Shown: positions 41,590-51,070 of the stretch, in pieces
How positions within the stretch are numbered: position 1 is the first letter of the stretch
How the letters are laid out: each line of letters begins with the position of its first letter
Assembly (NCBI GenBank): GCA_963705525.1
Contig: CAVPJW010000007.1
Coordinates: forward strand, 184,355-248,354
DNA from: an uncultured Acidobacteriota bacterium
Lineage (GTDB): Bacteria; Acidobacteriota; Vicinamibacteria; Vicinamibacterales; CAVPJW01
Length of the DNA stretch: 64,000 nucleotides
Direction of reading: 5' to 3'
The notes under the pieces: model-generated
Databases searched by the model: none
What the model was told of the DNA's origin: nothing
The model's input: the letters and a program-made list of their open reading frames with translations, nothing else
Made by a program: the position numbers and the translations under genes

Positions 41590-42360
41590 TCATTCTCGAG
41601 CCTGTCCAATCGCGACGACTCGGATTCCTGCCGCCTCGAGGCCGGCCCGGAGCTCAGACGCCAGCGCTCCAGCTCCCGGCGTGTCGCCGTGGACGCAGAT
41701 GGTGTCCGCCTCGAGCCGCAGGGTCGAGCCGTCCGTGGCCGTCACGACACCCGTTTGGACCATCTGCACGGCCCGGCTCACCACCGCATGCCGGTCGTGC
41801 AGCACCGCTCCTGGCTTGCGACGGGACGTCAGCGATCCATCCGGCTCGTACGCGCGATCGGCAAATACCTCTGCCGCCACCCGCAGGCCAGCGCCGCGCC
41901 CGGCGTTCAGAATCTCCGACCCTGGCAGCCCGAACAGAATGAGTGCCGGATCGACCGCCGCGACGGCACGCGCGATGGCGTCGGCCAGCGCGCGGTCCCC
42001 GACGGCCATGTTGAAGAGCGCGCCATGCGGCTTGACGTGCTGCAGACGAATACCTTCGGCTTGCGCCGCGGCGGCCAGCGCACCGATCTGATAGATCACG
42101 AGATCCTCGACCTCCGACGGTGTCGCGTTCAGTTCGCGCCGGCCGAATCCGACGAGGTCAGGGAATCCTGGGTGAACGCCTACGGCCACGCCCGCGTCGC
42201 GCGCGAGGCGCACGGTTTTGCGCATCACGGTCGGATCGCCGGCGTGAAACCCGCAAGCAATATTGGCCGAGGTGATGCTCTTCATCAGATCGGCATCGGC
42301 GCCGAGGCTATATGCGCCGAAGGACTCGCCCACGTCGGAATTGATGTCAATTCTCGTCAT
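41590..42360 (-). CDS. pxpA: LamB/YcsF family protein (5-oxoprolinase subunit A, PxpA)
   Basis: MTRIDINSDVGESFGAYSLG.D..L....TSANIACGFHAGDP is the hallmark N-terminus, followed by VGVHPGFPDL and VKPHGALFN. The start overlaps the stop of the upstream giant gene by 14 nt. Confidence 0.88.
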   Translation of the reverse strand: MTRIDINSDVGESFGAYSLGADADLMKSITSANIACGFHAGDPTVMRKTVRLARDAGVAVGVHPGFPDLVGFGRRELNATPSEVEDLVIYQIGALAAAAQAEGIRLQHVKPHGALFNMAVGDRALADAIARAVAAVDPALILFGLPGSEILNAGRGAGLRVAAEVFADRAYEPDGSLTSRRKPGAVLHDRHAVVSRAVQMVQTGVVTATDGSTLRLEADTICVHGDTPGAGALASELRAGLEAAGIRVVAIGQARE

Positions 42361-45300
42361 CGTCGTCAGAATCTTTGGGCGGACGCGCGCGACTCAGGCT
42401 CATGGTCACGCCACCGAAGAACTCGTCTGTCTTGCGATCGATCTTGTGACGGCCTTCGACCAGGTAGTCGAGCACCGCCGTGTCCCATGTCAGCCCAATG
42501 GCGGCGACCTTGGCGAGCCAGTCTCCCCTGGCTGTCTCGTCGGGGGCTTCAGTCGAGCCGTCCCAGATGGTGATGTTGGGCTGGCGGGTCATGAAGTCCG
42601 CAGCCTTCGGATCGGCGCGGTCACCCTTGATGGCGCTGTACATCAGCACGCCGTTGGTGAAGTCGAGCTTGAAGTTGCGTTGGTCCCACTGGAACGTATA
42701 ACGCCGGTATCGATCGTACGCCCGCGCGTTCAACGACGTGGCTTCCGGCGACGCGTTGATCCGATCGGTAATCAGCTGCCGTATTTTGAACTGCTCACGC
42801 TTGTGGCGGGGATATTTCGGATCGTCCAAGTAGCTGAAGTAAGGCATCCACCAGCCCCGCATCGACCAGTAGTCGCGCGTCTCCACGACGCGGTTCCGCA
42901 CCCAGGCCGCGTATTCGGAGAAGAGCTGTACCCATTCGTGCGAAGGATACCCGTGCGGGTTGAGAAAGATATCCGGCAGCCACGCGCGCCAGATGTCGGG
43001 CCGGACTCGAGATTCCGGGTAGAGAGGATCAGGGTCCCATTGAGCCGCCGTAACATCAACGCCGAGAGACCCGAGATAACCGGCGTGCAGCATGAAATCA
43101 GGCGTGACCTTGAAGAGGTCGTACGCCAGCTGCGCGCCATCGGGGTTGGTGATCGGGTGAATGACCACATTCACCTTGCGGAGCTTCTCCTTGAACGCAG
43201 GATCCGTGAGCAGCAGCTCGCCGAGCCGGAGGACGTGACTCGTCGACGACACTTCATTCGCATGCTGCCTGGCCGAATACACGATGGTTGGTTTGAGCGT
43301 CGTCGCCTTGAACTGCGACCAGTGCGTGGCTGACACCGGCGGCATCAAGTCCATCGCCCAGATGTCCTGATCGAGATAGCTTCGCCCAACTCTGTACACG
43401 TGAGCTTCGGGAAAGGTGGACATGCGCGCCAGAATTTCGGCCGCTTCTCCTGGCGGGATTGGCGTCGCCCACTGCACGAGGCGTTCACCTTGATAGCCAT
43501 AGCCGGACGGCAGCAACTTCCGAATGTCGGGCGCGTCGGCTGGCATTCCATTGGGCTCGAGGTCGCAGATGAGTTCAGCGGCGGGATTCGAATCGTGCTC
43601 CCACGCGGCCACGACCCGCAACGCCCTCAGGCCGGGGAAGGCCATCGCGTCGCGGTAGAGGCCGGCGGCTCGCAGTCGCCCAAGAATCGAGAGCACGTCA
43701 CGGACCTGCGCGGCCGACAGCATCTCACGGTCCACTTCCCTCTCGGTCGTCCGCTTGATCAGCTCGCCGCGCTCGTCCTTCTCGGTGTCCACTTTCACGC
43801 GAAGCTCGAGGCGGTCGAGCCCGGAGCGCGCCGCGTTGACCACGGCTCCGAGCGCCATCGGACGATCGACCGCAATTTTCTGCACATCGCGCCTCAGTCG
43901 CGCCTCTGATTGGCCGGCCGCCCGATAATCGATCGTGACCGACGGACGGGCCACATCGAACGCCGTCACCGTAATGCGGGCATGGCCACGCTTTCCGTCG
44001 GCCTTCGGGTGCATGATGGGAATCACGCGACCGGGATAGGCAAGAGCGGGACCCCGGACGAACCGCCCGAAGACATCGAAGAAATGCAGCGTGTTGAAAT
44101 ACAGCTCTTCGTGGACTGCTTCGAGCGACGAGATCTGCTCCTCGTCGATCCCGATGCGGTAGTCAGGCTCGCTGAGCGTCAAGTCGACTTTCAGCTCGCC
44201 AAAGAACGGCGCCTCGTCGGCTCGCGGCTTCCCTTCGGCGACGGCCATGACATGGTCGTACAGCGCAGGCAGCGTTTGCCCCTGAAAGTGATCCCAGAAG
44301 CGCTCGACGTCGGTCACTATCCGCTGATCAACGACCGTCGCTGACGCAACACGCCCCGTTATCCACCCCGTCGTGACACGAACCTTTTCGTAGTCGGGAA
44401 AGCGATCGAAGAACGGCCGGATGACGAACTTGGGATCGAACGTTCCGTGGAAAAGCACTGCGCCGGCAGCCGACGTCGCCGTGACGTCGTACGCGGACGA
44501 TCCCTTTGCGGCCATCTCGAGCTGAACCTGTTTCACCCCGAGGCCGAGATCCCGCGCCAGGATTTCATCGATGGGATAGATCTCCAGGAGCCACCGCGTC
44601 GGAGCGTACGTCCCCTGGAAACGCCACTCGGGCGGCGGCCCGATCTCGGCGCACTTGATAGTGATCCGATCGACAGGCGTTCCGCTGAGCGCGGGCCGGA
44701 CGACATCGTTCAGCCAGCTGTATCCCTGCTTGTAGGCCGAAAGGATGGTGACGGACAGATCTCGTTCGTTTGCGCCGGCCCGTACGAAAGCGGCACGCAC
44801 TTCTGATTCCAGGCGTGCCCGCACTTCCGGTGGCTCGCTCAGTCTCGCCTCGAGCTGGACCGCCTTCCCCTTCTTGACAGCCGGCAGGACACGCGATCGA
44901 ACCAACGTCCAGAAGTCATCCACTTCTGAAGGAATGTCGAGCTCTTCCTCGATGATCGCCCGACCCTTCCGCACATCCAGATCCTGAAGGCTCACAACGA
45001 TCTTGGGGGCTCGAATGCTTTTTTCGACCTCGCGGCGCAGAAAATCACGCAGTCCGGGATCGGCGTCCTTGACGTAGAACCTGACATCGGCCGTCTCGAG
45101 CTCTTTGCCCCTGAGCTCGGACGCGAGCTGATCAAACTTGTAGATCGCGGTCGCAGCCTGCCCCGCCGGTGTTCTCGCGCCGAGCGTTCGGCGCAACTCG
45201 TCGGCCACATCGCCAATCGTTCGGCGATCCTTGCCGCGTTCCCAGATATGCGGAAATCGTTCCGCAACCTGACTGACACCCCGTTCGAGTCCAGCTCGGT

Positions 45301-46564
45301 TCGCACCGGCGATGACGATGGCGCTCTTGTCGCCAAACGCTTTGCGCACGATTCGGATCACACCCTCACCCGACACCGCTGAAGGGAGTTCGAGCTTGTG
45401 AGCCTTGACGAGGTCGGCGATGAGCGGGTGATCGGCGCCGATGATGACGAGCGTGGGCTGGGCACCCGGAACACCGATTGCCGAAGGTGGTACCGCCATG
45501 GGCACGGATATGCCCGTCGATTCGACGCCCAGCCGTGCGGCCAGATCGACACTTGCGCTCGACCCCTCCCCGGTTGCAGAGATCAGTGCATCCACGCGAT
45601 CGCCGATCAGGTTGCTGTCCGAATCACCCAACAATCCATCGATGCCGTACAGATTCGACAGATCGAGGGCCTCCTTGGCCGAGGATCCCGGCCTCGGTCC
45701 AAGAGCCCTGCGGGTTTCCGGGGTCGATCCACGAGGGATGTCGATGGTGGCGACTTGATTGCCGGAACGCGCGCGCACGCGAACAGTCGCGATGCCTTCG
45801 TAGGAGATCGTCGCCTCTTCCGCGCCGCCGGCTCGACGCCTTAGTACGGTGAGCGCCATCAAGGCCCTCCGGGCCCTCAGAACGTCCTGCGGTGCAGCCA
45901 GGCGCACCGAGACAGTGAGGCGTTCAATCTGATCGGCGCCGCTCCTTACGGCGAGACCGGACACGACGGCACGGCCACCCGTGATGCCACTTCTCGTGAC
46001 CGCCTCCAGCACCCGCGCCTCGACATCCTTCAGATCTGGCCCCTTCATCGCCCAGGCGTGTGGAAGACGACCAGCCAGGAAATCGCCCGCGGCGAGGAGA
46101 CCCGCTCTGTCCCCCCCTGAAATCAGAACGCCAGGCGTGCCGTTCAGCGAGAAGGCTGTCAGAGATCCCATGCCTGGCTGGTTCTCTGGTGTTTCATCGA
46201 GCACCGCGCCAAGGCTGCTGAAAGCTCGCGCGCCGATGACGAGGGCCGGGACTGAAGCATCGCTGGCGCTTCCCCGGAGCGGCAGATTCATCGCGGAGGT
46301 CTCGAAACCGAGCCGGGCCGCGACGTTCGCGGCCGCCGCGACTTCTCCATCGTCCGGACGCTCAGGCAAGACGATTCGGGCGTTGACGAAGTCGATCACG
46401 TCGTCGCCGTTCCGGTCTTGAAGAATCACGCCGCGATCGAAGACCGCCGCCAGATCCGTCGAAGCAGCCGACGAGGCCTGGCGCGCGGCAGAGGCCGCCG
46501 CGAGCATCGACCATAAGAGCGACGCGACGAAAGGGGTCTTCAGAGCACGACGCCAGGATGCCAT
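42347..46564 (-). CDS. Giant (1405 aa) secreted protein with a C-terminal M14-like zinc carboxypeptidase domain and a long uncharacterised N-terminal region containing a duplicated module
   Basis: Signal peptide: MASWRRALKTPFVASLLWSMLAAASAARQ. M14-like motifs: YSARQHANEVSS (HxxE; His codon at 43262-64), VIHPITNPDG, and FLNPHGYPSHEW (third Zn-ligand candidate). The acidic tail ends KDSDDDDEN. Confidence 0.75.
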   Translation of the reverse strand: MASWRRALKTPFVASLLWSMLAAASAARQASSAASTDLAAVFDRGVILQDRNGDDVIDFVNARIVLPERPDDGEVAAAANVAARLGFETSAMNLPLRGSASDASVPALVIGARAFSSLGAVLDETPENQPGMGSLTAFSLNGTPGVLISGGDRAGLLAAGDFLAGRLPHAWAMKGPDLKDVEARVLEAVTRSGITGGRAVVSGLAVRSGADQIERLTVSVRLAAPQDVLRARRALMALTVLRRRAGGAEEATISYEGIATVRVRARSGNQVATIDIPRGSTPETRRALGPRPGSSAKEALDLSNLYGIDGLLGDSDSNLIGDRVDALISATGEGSSASVDLAARLGVESTGISVPMAVPPSAIGVPGAQPTLVIIGADHPLIADLVKAHKLELPSAVSGEGVIRIVRKAFGDKSAIVIAGANRAGLERGVSQVAERFPHIWERGKDRRTIGDVADELRRTLGARTPAGQAATAIYKFDQLASELRGKELETADVRFYVKDADPGLRDFLRREVEKSIRAPKIVVSLQDLDVRKGRAIIEEELDIPSEVDDFWTLVRSRVLPAVKKGKAVQLEARLSEPPEVRARLESEVRAAFVRAGANERDLSVTILSAYKQGYSWLNDVVRPALSGTPVDRITIKCAEIGPPPEWRFQGTYAPTRWLLEIYPIDEILARDLGLGVKQVQLEMAAKGSSAYDVTATSAAGAVLFHGTFDPKFVIRPFFDRFPDYEKVRVTTGWITGRVASATVVDQRIVTDVERFWDHFQGQTLPALYDHVMAVAEGKPRADEAPFFGELKVDLTLSEPDYRIGIDEEQISSLEAVHEELYFNTLHFFDVFGRFVRGPALAYPGRVIPIMHPKADGKRGHARITVTAFDVARPSVTIDYRAAGQSEARLRRDVQKIAVDRPMALGAVVNAARSGLDRLELRVKVDTEKDERGELIKRTTEREVDREMLSAAQVRDVLSILGRLRAAGLYRDAMAFPGLRALRVVAAWEHDSNPAAELICDLEPNGMPADAPDIRKLLPSGYGYQGERLVQWATPIPPGEAAEILARMSTFPEAHVYRVGRSYLDQDIWAMDLMPPVSATHWSQFKATTLKPTIVYSARQHANEVSSTSHVLRLGELLLTDPAFKEKLRKVNVVIHPITNPDGAQLAYDLFKVTPDFMLHAGYLGSLGVDVTAAQWDPDPLYPESRVRPDIWRAWLPDIFLNPHGYPSHEWVQLFSEYAAWVRNRVVETRDYWSMRGWWMPYFSYLDDPKYPRHKREQFKIRQLITDRINASPEATSLNARAYDRYRRYTFQWDQRNFKLDFTNGVLMYSAIKGDRADPKAADFMTRQPNITIWDGSTEAPDETARGDWLAKVAAIGLTWDTAVLDYLVEGRHKIDRKTDEFFGGVTMSLSRARPPKDSDDDDEN

Positions 46565-46925: not shown

Positions 46926-48062
46926 TCAGACGGTCGCGCCTTCGGGATACTGGAGCGCCAATTTGAGCTCTTTGGCCAGCGAATCGACGGTGGTGCCGCC
47001 CCTCTTCCAGGCGCCTTCGGTCTCAAAACGGAGGTCTCCAATTCGGCGCCCCCACGGCGAGATCACCCGCCCGATCGCCCGGAAGTCCGCCCGGTCTGCG
47101 TGTTCCTGGTCGAGGCGCCTGACGACCTCCGGCGAGACACGAATGAACGCTCGCAGCGCCGTCGCGCTCTTGATGCTGTATTTTCGGCCGTTCCACGCGG
47201 CGTTGAAAACGAGCGCCAGCTGCTTGAAGTAATTGACGAAAAACTGCCGGGCGTCCGCGTGAAAGTCTTCGGTTTTCTTCGCGCCCCCGAAGGCCTCGCT
47301 TGCAAAGAGTTTCTTGAGCTCTTGTGCAATGGGCGCCTGCGCGACTCGCCCCCGACCCACACCGAGGAGCTTGATCTCCCCGTGGAGCGGCGAATCGGAT
47401 CGGTCATTCAGCGCCCGGACGATGTCGTGCGCGACGGCCAGATTGTCGTCGCGATAGAGCTGGCGACCCGAAAGCGTGACGAGATGCGACGCGTTCAGCC
47501 GCGTATGCTTCGCGTTGATCGTGACGAACATCTGCACGATGTGGTCCTCGGGCAGACGGTCGAAGATGATCGCCGGGACGCTGAACTCTTCGTTGCCGAA
47601 GCGCTCGATGTCGGCATGCAACGCGAGGAGCCGATGCTGACCGTCAATCGCGCGAAGAATGCCCTCGCGCTCGGGCACTTTCAGCGTGCCGACTGAAGCG
47701 TTGTTGTCCGCCGGTTCGAACTTGAGAGGTTCGTCACACGAGATGATGACCGCGCCTGGAATGGACGGCAGATCGCGGGCCTGGCGGCATTGCTCGTAGT
47801 ACTGGACGAGCTCGTCGATCTTGCGTCGGATGATCTGGCGCTGGTACGCCTTCTCACTGGATGCGATTCGGCGTTCGAGGAGGTCCCAGTTGATCTTCGG
47901 ATTGACGACCCGGCGCTTGCCACCGCGAACCGGGGGCTGTGCCTGCTCTCCGTAGCTCAAGACTTCGAATCGAACGAGCTTATCGATATCTCCGGCCGTC
48001 AGAGAGGCCTGATAGAATTGCACCCCGAATTGCTGCATCCGAATAGCCGCGACGTTGATCAT
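46926..48062 (-). CDS. DGQHR-domain protein (DndB-like, ParB/Srx-fold superfamily)
   Basis: The literal motif is RAIDGQHRLLAL. The N-terminus MINVAAIRMQQFGVQFYQASLTAGDIDKLV and the later VPAIIFDRLPEDHIVQMFVTINAKHTRLNASHL match the DGQHR/DndB family layout as I remember it. Confidence 0.75.
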   Translation of the reverse strand: MINVAAIRMQQFGVQFYQASLTAGDIDKLVRFEVLSYGEQAQPPVRGGKRRVVNPKINWDLLERRIASSEKAYQRQIIRRKIDELVQYYEQCRQARDLPSIPGAVIISCDEPLKFEPADNNASVGTLKVPEREGILRAIDGQHRLLALHADIERFGNEEFSVPAIIFDRLPEDHIVQMFVTINAKHTRLNASHLVTLSGRQLYRDDNLAVAHDIVRALNDRSDSPLHGEIKLLGVGRGRVAQAPIAQELKKLFASEAFGGAKKTEDFHADARQFFVNYFKQLALVFNAAWNGRKYSIKSATALRAFIRVSPEVVRRLDQEHADRADFRAIGRVISPWGRRIGDLRFETEGAWKRGGTTVDSLAKELKLALQYPEGATV

Positions 48063-48289: not shown

Positions 48290-51070
48290 ATGATGATATC
48301 TGGAGCCCTTCGCAAAATCGTCCTGGCGTTCGTTCTCGCGGTCATCCTGGTCGTTCACCTGCCAGCTCAGCAGTCGGCATCGGGCCAGATGGACCCCGAG
48401 TTTGCGCGTCTGGTGAAGGAATGGACGACGAAACCTGAGTTTCTCAGTCCGCTTGTCGATCACTTGCCCAAGGTTGACGACGTACCGTCGCCCAAGGACG
48501 TGCTGGGCCATTACATCGGTGCGCCCAAGACGCTGACCTACTACGCCGATCTCTTGAAGTACTACCGCGCGCTCGCCGACGCCTCCGGGCGCGTGAAGGT
48601 TGTCTCGATCGGCCAGACCGACGAAGGCCGGGAATGTGTCGTCGTATTCGTCGGCTCCGAGGAATCGATTGCGAACCTCGATCGCAACCGCGAGAACCTC
48701 GCCAAGCTCGCGGACCCGCGAGGACTCTCCGAGACGCAGGTCCAGGACATCCTCGCGACGGCCAAGCCCCTCTATCACCTCATGGGTGGCCTCCACAGCA
48801 GCGAGAGTGGTCCGCCCGAAATGCTGATGGAACTGGCCTACCGTCTGGTGACCGAGGATTCGCCGATCATCCGGCAGATCCGCGACAACGTGATCGTCAG
48901 CATCACTCCGGCCGCCGAACCCGACGGGCGCGACCGGTTCGTCGACTGGTACTACCGGTACAACCTGGATCAGACCGACGAAGATCGCATGGTGGACGGC
49001 CCTCCCTACTGGGGCAAGTACGTTTTTCACGACAACAATCGCGACATCAACTACTCGCAGGTGACCATGCGGAACCTGCTGGGATGGTATCTCCAGTGGC
49101 ACCCGCCCATCATGCACGAGCTGCACGAGTCGGTGCCGTTCCTCTACACCTTCAGCGGCCAGGCGCCGCAGAATCCGACGCTCGACCCGATTCTCTACGG
49201 GGAACTTCCCTGGTTCTCGAACTTCGAGATGTCGCAGTTGACGAAGTACGGCATGCCTGGCGTGTGGACGCACGCGTTCGTGGACATGTGGTCCCCGGGC
49301 TACCTCGGCTTCATGGCGTCCAATCACAACGGCATGCTCCGCATGTACGAGACCTTCGGCAATGGCGGCGCGACCACGATGAAACGGAAGATCGAACGCG
49401 ACGACGACGGTCCGCGCCGCGTCAGCCCGACGACGCGGGAGTGGTATCGCCCGATGCCTCCGTACAAGGAAGTCGAGTGGTCGATGCGGAACAATACGAA
49501 CTACATGGAGACCGGCGTGCTGTCGGCGCTGCAGCTGACCTCCGCGTTTCCCCGCGTGATTCTCGAGAACTTCTATCTCAAGAGCCGCAACTCGATCGAA
49601 GCAGGCAAGAACGACGCGCCGTTCGGCTTCATCGTGCCGGGGGGCCAACCGGACATGACGCGCGTCGCGAACATGATCCGGATTCTGCGCACGCAGGGGA
49701 TAGAGGTCGGTCAGGCGACCGGCGAGATCAAGCTGAAGGAAGGGACGTTCCCGGCTGGGTCGTACGTCATCAAGCGAAATCAACCGTACGGACGCCTGGC
49801 GAAGATCCTCCTCGAAAAACAGTCGTTCCCCGATCCGGGTCTTCGCACGTACGACGACACGGGATGGACGATGGGGCTGATGAGCCACGCCGAGGTCCGC
49901 GAAATCGCTGACAAAGCGGTGCTCGATCTGCCCGTCACGCCGGTCACGGAAATCATGGTGGCCGGGAGCGTTTCCGGCGGCCGTCCAGGCACGGGTGCGT
50001 ATTACGCCGTGGCGAACCGCGGCTCGAACAATCTCGTGACGCTCCGTTACCGATTGCGAGACCTGTCGGTCCGCGCTCTGGAGCGCTCCTTCAAGTCGGG
50101 CGATACCGAGCTCGCGGCAGGCTCCTTGCTCATCGCGGCGGATCAGGGCGGCGGAGACGTTCGCGATCGAATCCGGGGCGCAATCGAGGACCTGGGCCAG
50201 AAGGCAGTCGTGCTGTCATCGGCGCCCGGCGTGCCGATGCACGACGTCGATCTTCCGCGACTGGCAGTGTATTCAACGTGGGGCGATACGCAGAATGTGG
50301 GCTGGGTCCGGTACGCCCTGGACCATTTCGAGGTCCCGTACGATCTGATCTACAAGGATCGGGTCAAGCGCGGGTCCCTTCGCGATGCGTACGATGTGAT
50401 CGTCATCCCGGACCAGGGGGGCAGCGGCAAGCAGCTCGTGTTTGACATCGAACCTCAGGGCAAGCCAATCGCGTACACCAGGACGGATCGATTCGAGCGG
50501 CTCGGCATGTACGGCGAATCAGAGGACATCACCGGGGGCATGGGACTCGAGGGAGCCGGCGAATTGCAGCGATTCGCCGCTGCGGGTGGTGTCCTGGCCA
50601 CGCTCGGAGCGGCGAGTTACTTCCCGCCCGAATTCGGGTTGACGCTCCGCATTGAAGCCAACCGCCCCTCGCGCGATTTCTATGCGCCCGGACCAATCGT
50701 CGAAGCCGACATTCTTCAGCCCGCTCATCCGCTTTTCTACGGGTACTCCAAAAAGACAATTCCGGTGCGCTACGCGGGCGGACCGCTGCTGCGGGTGCCG
50801 GATCGTGACAAGGCCGAACAAGTGCTGATGCAGTTCCCCGGTACCGACGCGTCGGTGCTGAGCGGTTTGATGAAAGGCGTCGGCGAGATTCGCAATCGAC
50901 CGGCGATTGTGGACGTGCCGACGGGCCAGGGACGCGTGATCCTTTTCGCCACGAATCCCGCGTACCGGTGGCAGAACTTCGGCGAGCTGAACATGCTCTT
51001 CAACCTCGTGATGCACTACAACGACATCGCACGAGATCGGCAGACTGCCGCGACGGCAGCCAAACCCTAG
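48290..51070 (+). CDS. Large (926 aa) secreted M14-family metallopeptidase-like protein
   Basis: Signal peptide: MMISGALRKIVLAFVLAVILVVHLPAQQ. M14-like motifs: LMGGLHSSESGPPE (HxxE), SITPAAEPDGRD, and WHPPIMHELHES. Confidence 0.75.
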   Translation: MMISGALRKIVLAFVLAVILVVHLPAQQSASGQMDPEFARLVKEWTTKPEFLSPLVDHLPKVDDVPSPKDVLGHYIGAPKTLTYYADLLKYYRALADASGRVKVVSIGQTDEGRECVVVFVGSEESIANLDRNRENLAKLADPRGLSETQVQDILATAKPLYHLMGGLHSSESGPPEMLMELAYRLVTEDSPIIRQIRDNVIVSITPAAEPDGRDRFVDWYYRYNLDQTDEDRMVDGPPYWGKYVFHDNNRDINYSQVTMRNLLGWYLQWHPPIMHELHESVPFLYTFSGQAPQNPTLDPILYGELPWFSNFEMSQLTKYGMPGVWTHAFVDMWSPGYLGFMASNHNGMLRMYETFGNGGATTMKRKIERDDDGPRRVSPTTREWYRPMPPYKEVEWSMRNNTNYMETGVLSALQLTSAFPRVILENFYLKSRNSIEAGKNDAPFGFIVPGGQPDMTRVANMIRILRTQGIEVGQATGEIKLKEGTFPAGSYVIKRNQPYGRLAKILLEKQSFPDPGLRTYDDTGWTMGLMSHAEVREIADKAVLDLPVTPVTEIMVAGSVSGGRPGTGAYYAVANRGSNNLVTLRYRLRDLSVRALERSFKSGDTELAAGSLLIAADQGGGDVRDRIRGAIEDLGQKAVVLSSAPGVPMHDVDLPRLAVYSTWGDTQNVGWVRYALDHFEVPYDLIYKDRVKRGSLRDAYDVIVIPDQGGSGKQLVFDIEPQGKPIAYTRTDRFERLGMYGESEDITGGMGLEGAGELQRFAAAGGVLATLGAASYFPPEFGLTLRIEANRPSRDFYAPGPIVEADILQPAHPLFYGYSKKTIPVRYAGGPLLRVPDRDKAEQVLMQFPGTDASVLSGLMKGVGEIRNRPAIVDVPTGQGRVILFATNPAYRWQNFGELNMLFNLVMHYNDIARDRQTAATAAKP

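Follow-up and report, generated by a model that had tools for sequence, protein, structure and literature searches.

An ancient, duplicated module of a known alpha/beta superfamily in a predicted exported M14-family metallopeptidase of Acidobacteriota

The 64,000-nucleotide stretch analyzed here, referred to below as the window, comes from an uncultured bacterium of the Vicinamibacterales (Acidobacteriota; positions 184,355 to 248,354 of contig CAVPJW010000007.1, assembly GCA_963705525.1). On its minus strand, it carries a gene for a 1405-amino-acid protein of the M14 metallopeptidase family, in which two diverged copies of a module that belongs to a known alpha/beta superfamily are located far upstream of the peptidase domain. 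The gene and the parts of the encoded protein, in the order from the N-terminus, are as follows.

42347..46564, minus strand: complete gene of the 1405-amino-acid multidomain M14 metallopeptidase-family protein (from the list of open reading frames and the translation; stop codon at 42347-42349)
46484..46564, minus strand: probable Sec signal peptide, residues 1-27, MASWRRALKTPFVASLLWSMLAAASA followed by AR, without a lipobox cysteine (read from the sequence)
45962..46462, minus strand: repeat copy 1, residues 35-201, with AARLGFETS, PGxG, GGDxAG, LPHxW and a trailing helix (from self-similarity and the AlphaFold2 model)
46391..46417, minus strand: in copy 1, the Asp-rich loop D50-R-N52-G-D54-D-V-I-D58 (D-x-N-x-D-x-x-x-D), which may bind Ca2+ (from the motif)
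45734..45961, minus strand: intervening beta-beta-alpha-beta-beta domain, residues ~202-277 (~75 amino acids; modeled by AlphaFold2 with local confidence >90)
45671..45733, minus strand: Pro/Arg/Gly-rich linker, residues ~278-298, where the low AlphaFold2 confidence continues to ~323, into copy 2
45146..45670, minus strand: repeat copy 2, residues 299-473, with DLAARLGVEST, SGEG, AGANRAG, FPHIW and a trailing helix (from self-similarity)
45599..45625, minus strand: in copy 2, the Asp-rich loop D314-S-D316-S-N318-L-I-G-D322 (D-x-D-x-N-x-x-x-D), which may bind Ca2+ (from the motif)
43475..45145, minus strand: conserved middle region, residues ~474-1030, with several alpha/beta and beta-rich domains (from AlphaFold2)
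42350..43474, minus strand: M14-type zinc peptidase domain, residues ~1031-1405 (Pfam PF00246)

An entry identical to the 1405-amino-acid protein (P0001) exists in public collections, as do 366 close homologues of ~1400 amino acids and 55-60% identity, several of which are titled "M14 family metallopeptidase [Vicinamibacterales bacterium]". In a Pfam scan of the whole protein, the M14 segment (PF00246, residues 1050-1147, 48.8 bits, cut-off 21.6) is the only one above threshold, and an NCBIfam scan of the same sequence yields no match. A phmmer search of the PDB sequences with the whole protein returns only ApoE, a spurious hit. The N-terminal sequence suggests export via the Sec pathway. Conservation scores and residue counts given here refer to an alignment of 120 homologues, and invariance over larger distances to relatives at 26-55% identity. 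The signal-peptide region is weakly conserved in this alignment (score 0.28), as expected of a signal peptide. A Tat signal was considered on account of an N-terminal "RR" and rejected, given that the family consensus has no conserved twin arginine. The protein ends with an acidic tail, KDSDDDDEN (residues ~1399-1405, 42350-42370, minus strand), ahead of which there is a conserved RPRPPK motif; no PEP-CTERM, type IX secretion system (T9SS)-type or transmembrane sorting signal is visible at the C-terminus.

A BLASTP comparison of residues 31-200 with residues 291-470 aligns 161 positions, of which 42 (26%) are identical, with E=1e-9 in the space of this pairwise comparison. The Smith-Waterman score of copy against copy is 101, compared with 36.4 +/- 6.7 (maximum 78) in 1000 composition-preserving shuffles (z=9.6), and the best score against any other 180-amino-acid window of the protein is 42. 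When the family profiles of the two copies are compared using hhalign, the probability is 99.1% (E=1.4e-18, 154 columns), and a second profile-profile run gives 99.0% (E=2.2e-18, 157 columns). A sliding self-scan of the family profile detects exactly two copies, at ~35-201 and ~299-473, and no additional copies or larger repeat unit. These results bear out the internal duplication noticed in the preliminary description, all four quoted segment pairs of which fall in the one BLASTP alignment, and its coordinates are correct as well (45242..46423, that is, residues 48-441). Its extent of ~125 amino acids has to be revised because the repeat is longer and includes the helix that follows P-H-x-W and the N-terminal Asp-rich loop. 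Nor is the repeat strictly tandem because the copies are not arranged head-to-tail but are parted by a spacer of ~100 residues that consists of the small beta-beta-alpha-beta-beta domain and the low-confidence, presumably flexible linker.

No repeat between copy 1 and copy 2 is detectable at the DNA level, and both copies are kept in a paralogue with 36% identity and in full-length relatives with as little as ~26%; thus, the duplication is ancient and fixed. Copy 2 is the more conserved one (0.82, compared with 0.67 for copy 1). A combined alignment of both copies shows the common invariants L, D...D-x-V, AARLG-x-E, P, G, L-x-x-G-x-G, G-x-D-x-x-G, A, A, P-x-x-W and T, and R84/R344, E88/E348 and the aspartate of the GGD motif are the conserved polar residues of the module.

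The fold was examined in an AlphaFold2 model of residues 28-480 that was built with 47 homologues and has a mean predicted local distance difference test score (pLDDT) of 81.5 and a predicted template modeling score (pTM) of 0.80; the pLDDT of copy 1 is mostly >85. Each copy consists of a strand, a long helix, a strand, a short helix, a beta-hairpin and a long helix (E-H-E-h-EE-H), followed by another helix, and is modeled as a two-layer alpha/beta structure of ~135-170 residues with the sheet lying on the two long helices. A Foldseek search of the PDB with this model identifies the cellulose-synthase subunit BcsB (7l2z, E=3e-5, and other BcsB entries to 1e-3), 9FSA from the surface-layer protein of Methanococcus voltae (E=6e-5, probability 1.00, template modeling (TM) score 0.68 on the target, 135 columns, 20% identity) and the N-terminal domains of GH115 and GH67 glucuronidases (e.g., 4zmh of GH115, with 24% identity and a root-mean-square deviation (rmsd) of 4.3 Å over 131 columns). 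Judged by the predicted model, the module adopts the fold of 9FSA, the representative of PF05124.

Sequence comparisons lead to the same proteins. A search of the PDB sequences with the repeat-1 profile has 9FSA as the best match (E=0.004), with ARIVL/AADVAARLG opposite ADIVVG/AANVAAKVG and AVAILGGDDAG opposite VLVVAGGDRAA; the repeat-2 profile matches GH115 N-domains with E~0.08 and 9FSA with E=0.25 (AVVVTGADAAG opposite ALIIAGSDKRG); and 9FSA is the sole PDB sequence matched at E<=1 by the profile of the whole protein. Among individual module copies of the family, 11 of 20 match PF05124 (S_layer_C) at E<=1, the best with 2.9e-7, and 9 of 20 match PF03170 (BcsB), the best with 4.7e-5. PF05124 also matches 12 of 31 diverse full-length relatives at E<=0.01 (best 7.4e-10), and three of these exceed the gathering score of 23.9 bits, namely P0133 (59.1, in two stretches), P0141 (36.8) and P0138 (25.1); in P0133, the 59-bit score falls at the position orthologous to copy 2. 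The part of PF05124 that is matched by the module, profile positions ~89-175, appears to fit the C-terminal piece (amino acids 484-576) of the 576-amino-acid protein of Methanococcus voltae. A strand-(A/G)G(G/S/A)D-x-x-(G/A)-helix signature is common to the module, the surface-layer (S-layer) anchor, BcsB and the GH115 N-domain. Thus, the module is not a new domain but belongs to a known alpha/beta superfamily, of which it represents a divergent bacterial version with a contiguous sequence. A literature search on PF05124 found nothing relevant.

Each copy contains, ahead of the module core, a loop with acidic or amide residues at positions 1, 3, 5 and 9. In copy 1, D50, N52, D54 and D58 are present in 117-120 of the 120 homologues, and the three aspartates are also invariant in the distant relatives; in copy 2, D314, D316 and N318 are found in 120/120 homologues and D322 in 119/120. 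DxDxDG-type calcium loops occur in EF-hand, dockerin and FG-GAP domains, and the resemblance to such loops suggests that the Asp-rich loops bind Ca2+. In profile alignments with 9FSA, no such loop is obvious in the archaeal sequence.

A search of 1.84 billion cluster representatives (clusters at 50% identity) with the module profile retrieves 935 proteins at E<=1e-3, of which 562 reach E<=1e-10 and 172 reach E<=1e-30. Among the best 150 of the 935, from which the architectures are described, most are proteins of ~1400 amino acids with two module stretches, or pieces of such proteins, and every full-length protein examined has a C-terminal M14 domain. The exceptions are P0130, in which an outer-membrane barrel is joined to the module, and P0251, in which the partner is DUF2207_C; in both cases, neighboring genes seem to have been called as one. 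When one genome of each GTDB species is scanned for the pattern, 222 loci are obtained, and the best 80 belong almost without exception to metagenome-assembled genomes of Acidobacteriota (Vicinamibacterales, "gp6" and Candidatus Marinacidobacterales), and a few Gemmatimonadota and Bifidobacteriaceae bins among them are taken to be mis-binned, so that within this set the family is seen to be almost confined to Vicinamibacterales-type Acidobacteriota. The paralogue mentioned above (locus L002, 776-4540, plus strand) is 36% identical over residues 13-976, and the two module copies are both recognizable in it (E=1e-37 and E=5e-42). The last ~270 residues of the paralogue resemble an out-of-frame translation, and the M14 domain is possibly frameshifted in that assembly.

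The M14 domain is the most conserved region of the protein (0.90). Its motifs are HANE (residues 1101-1104, 43253..43264), NPDG (1140-1143), NPHGY (1202-1206) and TEAPDE (1338-1343), and PF00246 also matches 31 of 31 diverse relatives. Across the relatives at 26-55% identity, no variation is seen at E1104, N1140, D1142, G1143 and H1204, and next to none at H1101 and E1339. With PF00246 above threshold and the HxxE...H zinc ligands present, the protein is a member of M14. The HxxE motif with the distal histidine, NPDG and the conserved glutamate of the TEAP motif are features of M14 carboxypeptidases, of which carboxypeptidase A (CPA) is the archetype; the differences are that just the first third of the Pfam model aligns and that ~1030 residues precede the domain. 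A search of the PDB sequences with the M14-domain profile gives no match at E<=10. The candidate for the catalytic Glu270 is E1339, in a segment (TEAPDE) that aligns to neither Pfam nor PDB. Comparison by hhalign with a CPA sequence yields no global alignment and a weak local one over the first third. Asn144 and Arg145 of CPA bind the C-terminal carboxylate of the substrate. In this weak alignment, GVDVTAAQW (residues 1168-1176, 43037-43063, minus strand) stands opposite GVDPNRNW of CPA, which suggests, as a lead, that the N144/R145 pair is missing across the family. The apparent loss of this pair casts doubt on the identity of the protein as a classical carboxypeptidase. A literature search on Vicinamibacter and M14 found nothing relevant.

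The domain between the two copies is composed of the elements E171-180, E186-194, H199-217, E233-240 and E243-250 (model numbering, to which 27 is added to obtain protein residues). It is followed by a poorly modeled stretch, where the pLDDT is <50 at 257-265 and 267-296 of the model (residues 284-323 of the protein). Residues 203-291 show weak profile similarity (probability 34-38%) to residues 906-1016, just before the M14 domain (45692-45955 and 43517-43846, respectively, minus strand), for which the same beta-beta-alpha-beta-beta order is predicted; this pair may represent a second, even older internal duplication. Another weak similarity connects residues 534-578 and 741-800 (probability 40-49%).

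The middle region is well modeled (residues 465-1075, pLDDT 86.4, pTM 0.81) and conserved (0.73-0.86), and the residues that are invariant at 26-55% identity include E547, S576, E577, W617, R657, D752, W757, Q761, S798 and E799. A Foldseek search of the PDB finds nothing convincing for this model (the best match is 5hy2, Toblerone fold, with a probability of 0.33 and TM scores of 0.10-0.16), and a search of BFVD nothing credible; fragments of RusA or FtsZ, which also appeared among the fold matches, are not credible either. No Pfam family is detected in the middle region of any of the 31 diverse relatives, no NCBIfam match in that of the window protein, and no PDB sequence with the full-length profile. 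It is possible that the middle region comprises new folds or harbors a second functional site.

With these assignments, the view that recognizable M14 sequence is limited to the C-terminal end holds (the last ~360 residues, with the Pfam match at 1050-1147). The accompanying statement that no function is assignable to the ~1,070 residues upstream survives for the ~550 residues from 474 to 1030, for which there is no Pfam, NCBIfam or PDB match, but not for the repeated modules. The latter had been called "unknown" and possibly "novel", a characterization that is superseded by the Foldseek matches to BcsB, 9FSA and GH115/GH67, by PF05124 and PF03170, and by the repeat-1 profile. The preliminary description had also named clean mapping to already characterized domains as an outcome that would speak against it: the mapping is real, although it stays below threshold for the window protein itself, and the roles of the relatives are structural rather than biochemically well defined.

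The following genes flank the 1405-amino-acid gene in the window.

41590..42360, minus strand: LamB/YcsF-family gene (PF03746, E=1.5e-102; 5-oxoprolinase subunit A family), the start of which overlaps the end of the M14 open reading frame by 14 nucleotides
46926..48062, minus strand: DndB-like gene (PF14072, E=4e-16; "DNA-sulfur modification-associated"), directly upstream and between both M14 genes
48290..51070, plus strand: second M14 gene, 926 amino acids, with PF00246 at residues 90-221, divergent from the 1405-amino-acid gene

The 14-nucleotide overlap suggests translational coupling of the M14 and LamB/YcsF genes. The repeated module is absent from the 926-amino-acid protein, which is not significantly similar to the 1405-amino-acid protein in any part other than the M14 domain. 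Neighbors were counted in 55 related loci with full flanks. A gene for an outer-membrane protein resembling TonB-dependent receptors, which the window does not have at this place, is immediately upstream in 26 of these, rmlA/C-like genes are found upstream in 15, a DndB-like gene in 11 and a second M14 gene in ~10. On the downstream side, LamB/YcsF is present in 26 of the 55 loci, usually with an MFS transporter (23 of 55) next and at times an SSF transporter; no PxpB/PxpC partners are seen near the LamB/YcsF gene. The order M14b, DndB-like, (rmlBAC), big M14 is kept in about a fifth of the related loci; for a protein of the DNA-modification type such as the DndB-like one, these are odd neighbors. 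At locus L002 (5109-7993), a TonB-dependent-receptor-like protein (CarboxypepD_reg and OMP_b-brl_4) is encoded immediately upstream of the orthologous M14 gene, and in P0130 such a protein is fused to the start of the peptidase. The combination of receptor and M14 peptidase suggests a transporter-enzyme pair and, to go by the gene names, the locus looks like one for the acquisition of a nutrient (peptide) at the envelope.

All these observations are best compatible with the hypothesis that an ancient, duplicated module of a known superfamily is a non-catalytic scaffold, assembly or anchoring part of a Sec-exported M14 peptidase, which we consider probable. Given that the domain of every characterized relative is non-catalytic and makes protein-protein contacts, the two modules would, by analogy, constitute a scaffold or assembly unit. 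The copies might pair as an intramolecular pseudo-dimer that mimics the archaeal homodimer, or they might mediate self-association or envelope docking; the pTM of 0.80 of the two-module fragment is consistent with a pseudo-dimer. Binding of Ca2+ by the invariant D-x-[DN]-x-[DN]-x-x-x-D loop probably stabilizes each copy, and catalysis would be carried out by the C-terminal M14 domain. A role of the enzyme in peptide scavenging in the envelope is suggested by the TonB-dependent-receptor-like porin encoded upstream and by the LamB/YcsF, MFS and SSF genes downstream.

Several points weigh against this interpretation. The window protein itself scores only 11.8 bits with PF05124 (E=0.19, cut-off 23.9; residues 349-432, profile positions 89-172) and 10.4 bits with PF03170 (cut-off 21; residues 58-96), and its repeat 2 taken alone matches nothing in Pfam at E<=1; these sub-threshold scores reflect divergence of the window copies from the superfamily. 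The E-values obtained with PDB sequences (0.004-0.25) are marginal when taken singly. The Foldseek TM scores with BcsB are low (0.24-0.36, rmsd >20 Å), because single domains match but their arrangement differs. The loop of copy 2 is modeled at pLDDT <50, and the calcium reading comes from the motif. The high pTM is the sole pointer to a possible pseudo-dimer, and the functional role proposed for the modules is drawn by analogy with superfamily members that themselves have no single agreed biochemical function.

The readings that compete with this hypothesis differ in what they make of the same matches. One of them regards the module as a novel domain that recognizes the substrate or binds an envelope polymer (glycan or peptidoglycan) and thereby tethers or targets the enzyme. 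It fits the lack of any family at threshold in the N-terminal part of the window protein, the label "cell wall anchoring domain" chosen by the depositors of 9FSA, the handling of polysaccharide by BcsB (PMC8892547) and the dTDP-rhamnose-type genes (rmlA/C) upstream in 15/55 loci, and R84/R344, E88/E348 and the GGD aspartate might form a binding site. Novelty, however, is contradicted by the links of the module to Pfam, PDB and Foldseek matches; the glycan of BcsB sits on the jellyroll domains and not on the flavodoxin-like modules (PMC8892547); and the documented role of the domain in M. voltae is dimerization (PMC11410804). No relative of the module gives direct support for the binding of a polymer or substrate. 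Furthermore, Methanococcales are not known to have a cell-wall polymer that could be bound, and we deem this reading unlikely. It appears somewhat less plausible that the modules are intramolecular support or regulatory domains packed on the catalytic domain, as in GH115, GH67 and GH20-type enzymes, or a folding aid or pro-domain for M14. The N-domains of GH115/GH67 are indeed among the best structural matches, the helices of the GH115 module contact the TIM barrel extensively (PMC3879575), and the two modules, the middle region and M14 are conserved as a unit to ~26% identity; yet the modules are ~600 residues away from M14 in the sequence, and, of all structured parts, copy 1 is conserved least (0.67, compared with 0.90 for M14).

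A more elaborate picture, to which we give little credence, is that of an envelope machine specific to Vicinamibacteria. Here, an archaeal-type anchor, made contiguous and duplicated, would form a Ca2+-stabilized pseudo-dimer that docks a giant peptidase to the cell surface or to a TonB-dependent transporter, and the middle region would consist of one or more unseen folds with binding or catalytic activity of their own; if true, the whole would constitute a bacterial system of the "enzyme-bearing S-layer-like" or "peptide utilisation locus" kind. Weak matches of the repeat-1 profile to the GxGxxG regions of FSP1 and NAD synthetase (E=0.03-0.09) could be taken to indicate Rossmann-type nucleotide-binding domains, with the strand-GGDxAG-helix segment as the dinucleotide loop. 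These matches, however, span ~40 residues and fail the per-domain thresholds, the Gly-rich loop precedes the last helix of the module instead of following the first strand, domains without enzymatic activity are the best structural matches, and the protein bears a predicted export signal, whereas nucleotide cofactors are not expected outside the cytoplasm; a Rossmann-type module is therefore very improbable. Finally, the pairwise identity of the copies is only 24-26% and the protein is rich in alanine, glycine and arginine, as would be the case if the repeat were an artefact of chance or of composition in a high-GC protein rich in Ala, Gly and Asp. This explanation is already refuted by the shuffle maximum of 78 against a score of 101, by the scores of <=42 for other windows and by the profile-profile E-value of ~2e-18, as well as by the same predicted order of secondary structure elements in both copies and their independent matches to the same Pfam families, and it can practically be dismissed.

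The scaffold hypothesis and the superfamily assignment have several consequences. A fold and an evolutionary origin are assigned to ~340 formerly unannotated residues of a large family that is abundant in soil Acidobacteriota (935 clusters at 50% identity match the module profile), and the superfamily of S-layer anchors, BcsB and GH115 N-domains is extended to bacterial peptidases. For the annotation of Acidobacteria, this means an improved map of domains and a testable proposal that assembly or anchoring depends on Ca2+. Outside the coordinates to which attention had been drawn lie the conserved ~550-residue middle region and the atypical surroundings of the M14 active site.

Comparison with the characterized systems helps to define what is shared and what is specific. 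The N-domain of GH115/GH67 (4C90/4C91, 4ZMH, 7PXQ) has, like the module, a beta-sheet on two parallel helices, with local matches of 125-135 columns at an rmsd of 4.3-5.6 Å and 17-24% identity; the corresponding similarity of the repeat-2 profile (LVLIG...AVVVTGADAAG and LIIVG...ALIIAGSDKRG, E~0.08) is not significant alone. In GH115, a single copy is fused to the TIM barrel and packs on it, with extensive contacts through its two helices (PMC3879575), in contrast to the peptidase, where two copies lie far from the catalytic domain. The architecture of these enzymes is not that of the peptidase: neither a TIM barrel nor a GH family is detected anywhere in the 1405-amino-acid protein by Pfam, and the same holds for the 31 relatives.

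The flavodoxin-like domains D2 and D4 of BcsB (PF03170; 7L2Z, 6YG8, 9FMT) are the top Foldseek matches and span both modules. BcsB resembles the peptidase in having two copies per chain with another domain between them, and in the periplasmic location and the role of the domain in protein-protein assembly, both of which are predicted for the peptidase: the flavodoxin-like modules of BcsB polymerize through beta-sheet complementation, and the glycan is bound by the jellyroll domains (PMC8892547). The difference is that in BcsB, jellyroll domains that bind carbohydrate alternate with the modules and the chain ends in a membrane anchor; neither jellyrolls nor an anchor are seen in the peptidase. 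The four-domain architecture of BcsB and a bcs operon are both lacking here, given that the inter-module domain is of the beta-beta-alpha-beta-beta type and not a jellyroll, and that no bcs genes are found near the window gene or in the related loci.

The S-layer anchor of Methanococcales (C-terminal half of PF05124; 9FSA, amino acids 24-75 and 484-576 of M. voltae Q50833) has the same fold and is similar in sequence over the whole module, including helix 1 (AA-VAA+-G) and the strand-AGGD-x-A-helix segment. The entry is titled [quoted passage not shown], and the domain is the dimerizing, membrane-proximal anchor of the M. voltae S-layer (PMC11410804); like it, the peptidase is predicted to be extracytoplasmic. 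The archaeal domain is discontinuous, being assembled from the N- and C-termini of a lattice protein with the lattice domains inserted, an arrangement that the peptidase modules do not have. By contrast, the acidobacterial module is contiguous, occurs twice per chain and is fused to a bacterial enzyme, and the invariant Asp-rich loop and the arginine and glutamate of AARLGxE are specific to the acidobacterial family. Thus, the type of domain is known and no new mechanism is involved; what is new is the setting, in which the domain is contiguous, duplicated and fused to a peptidase.

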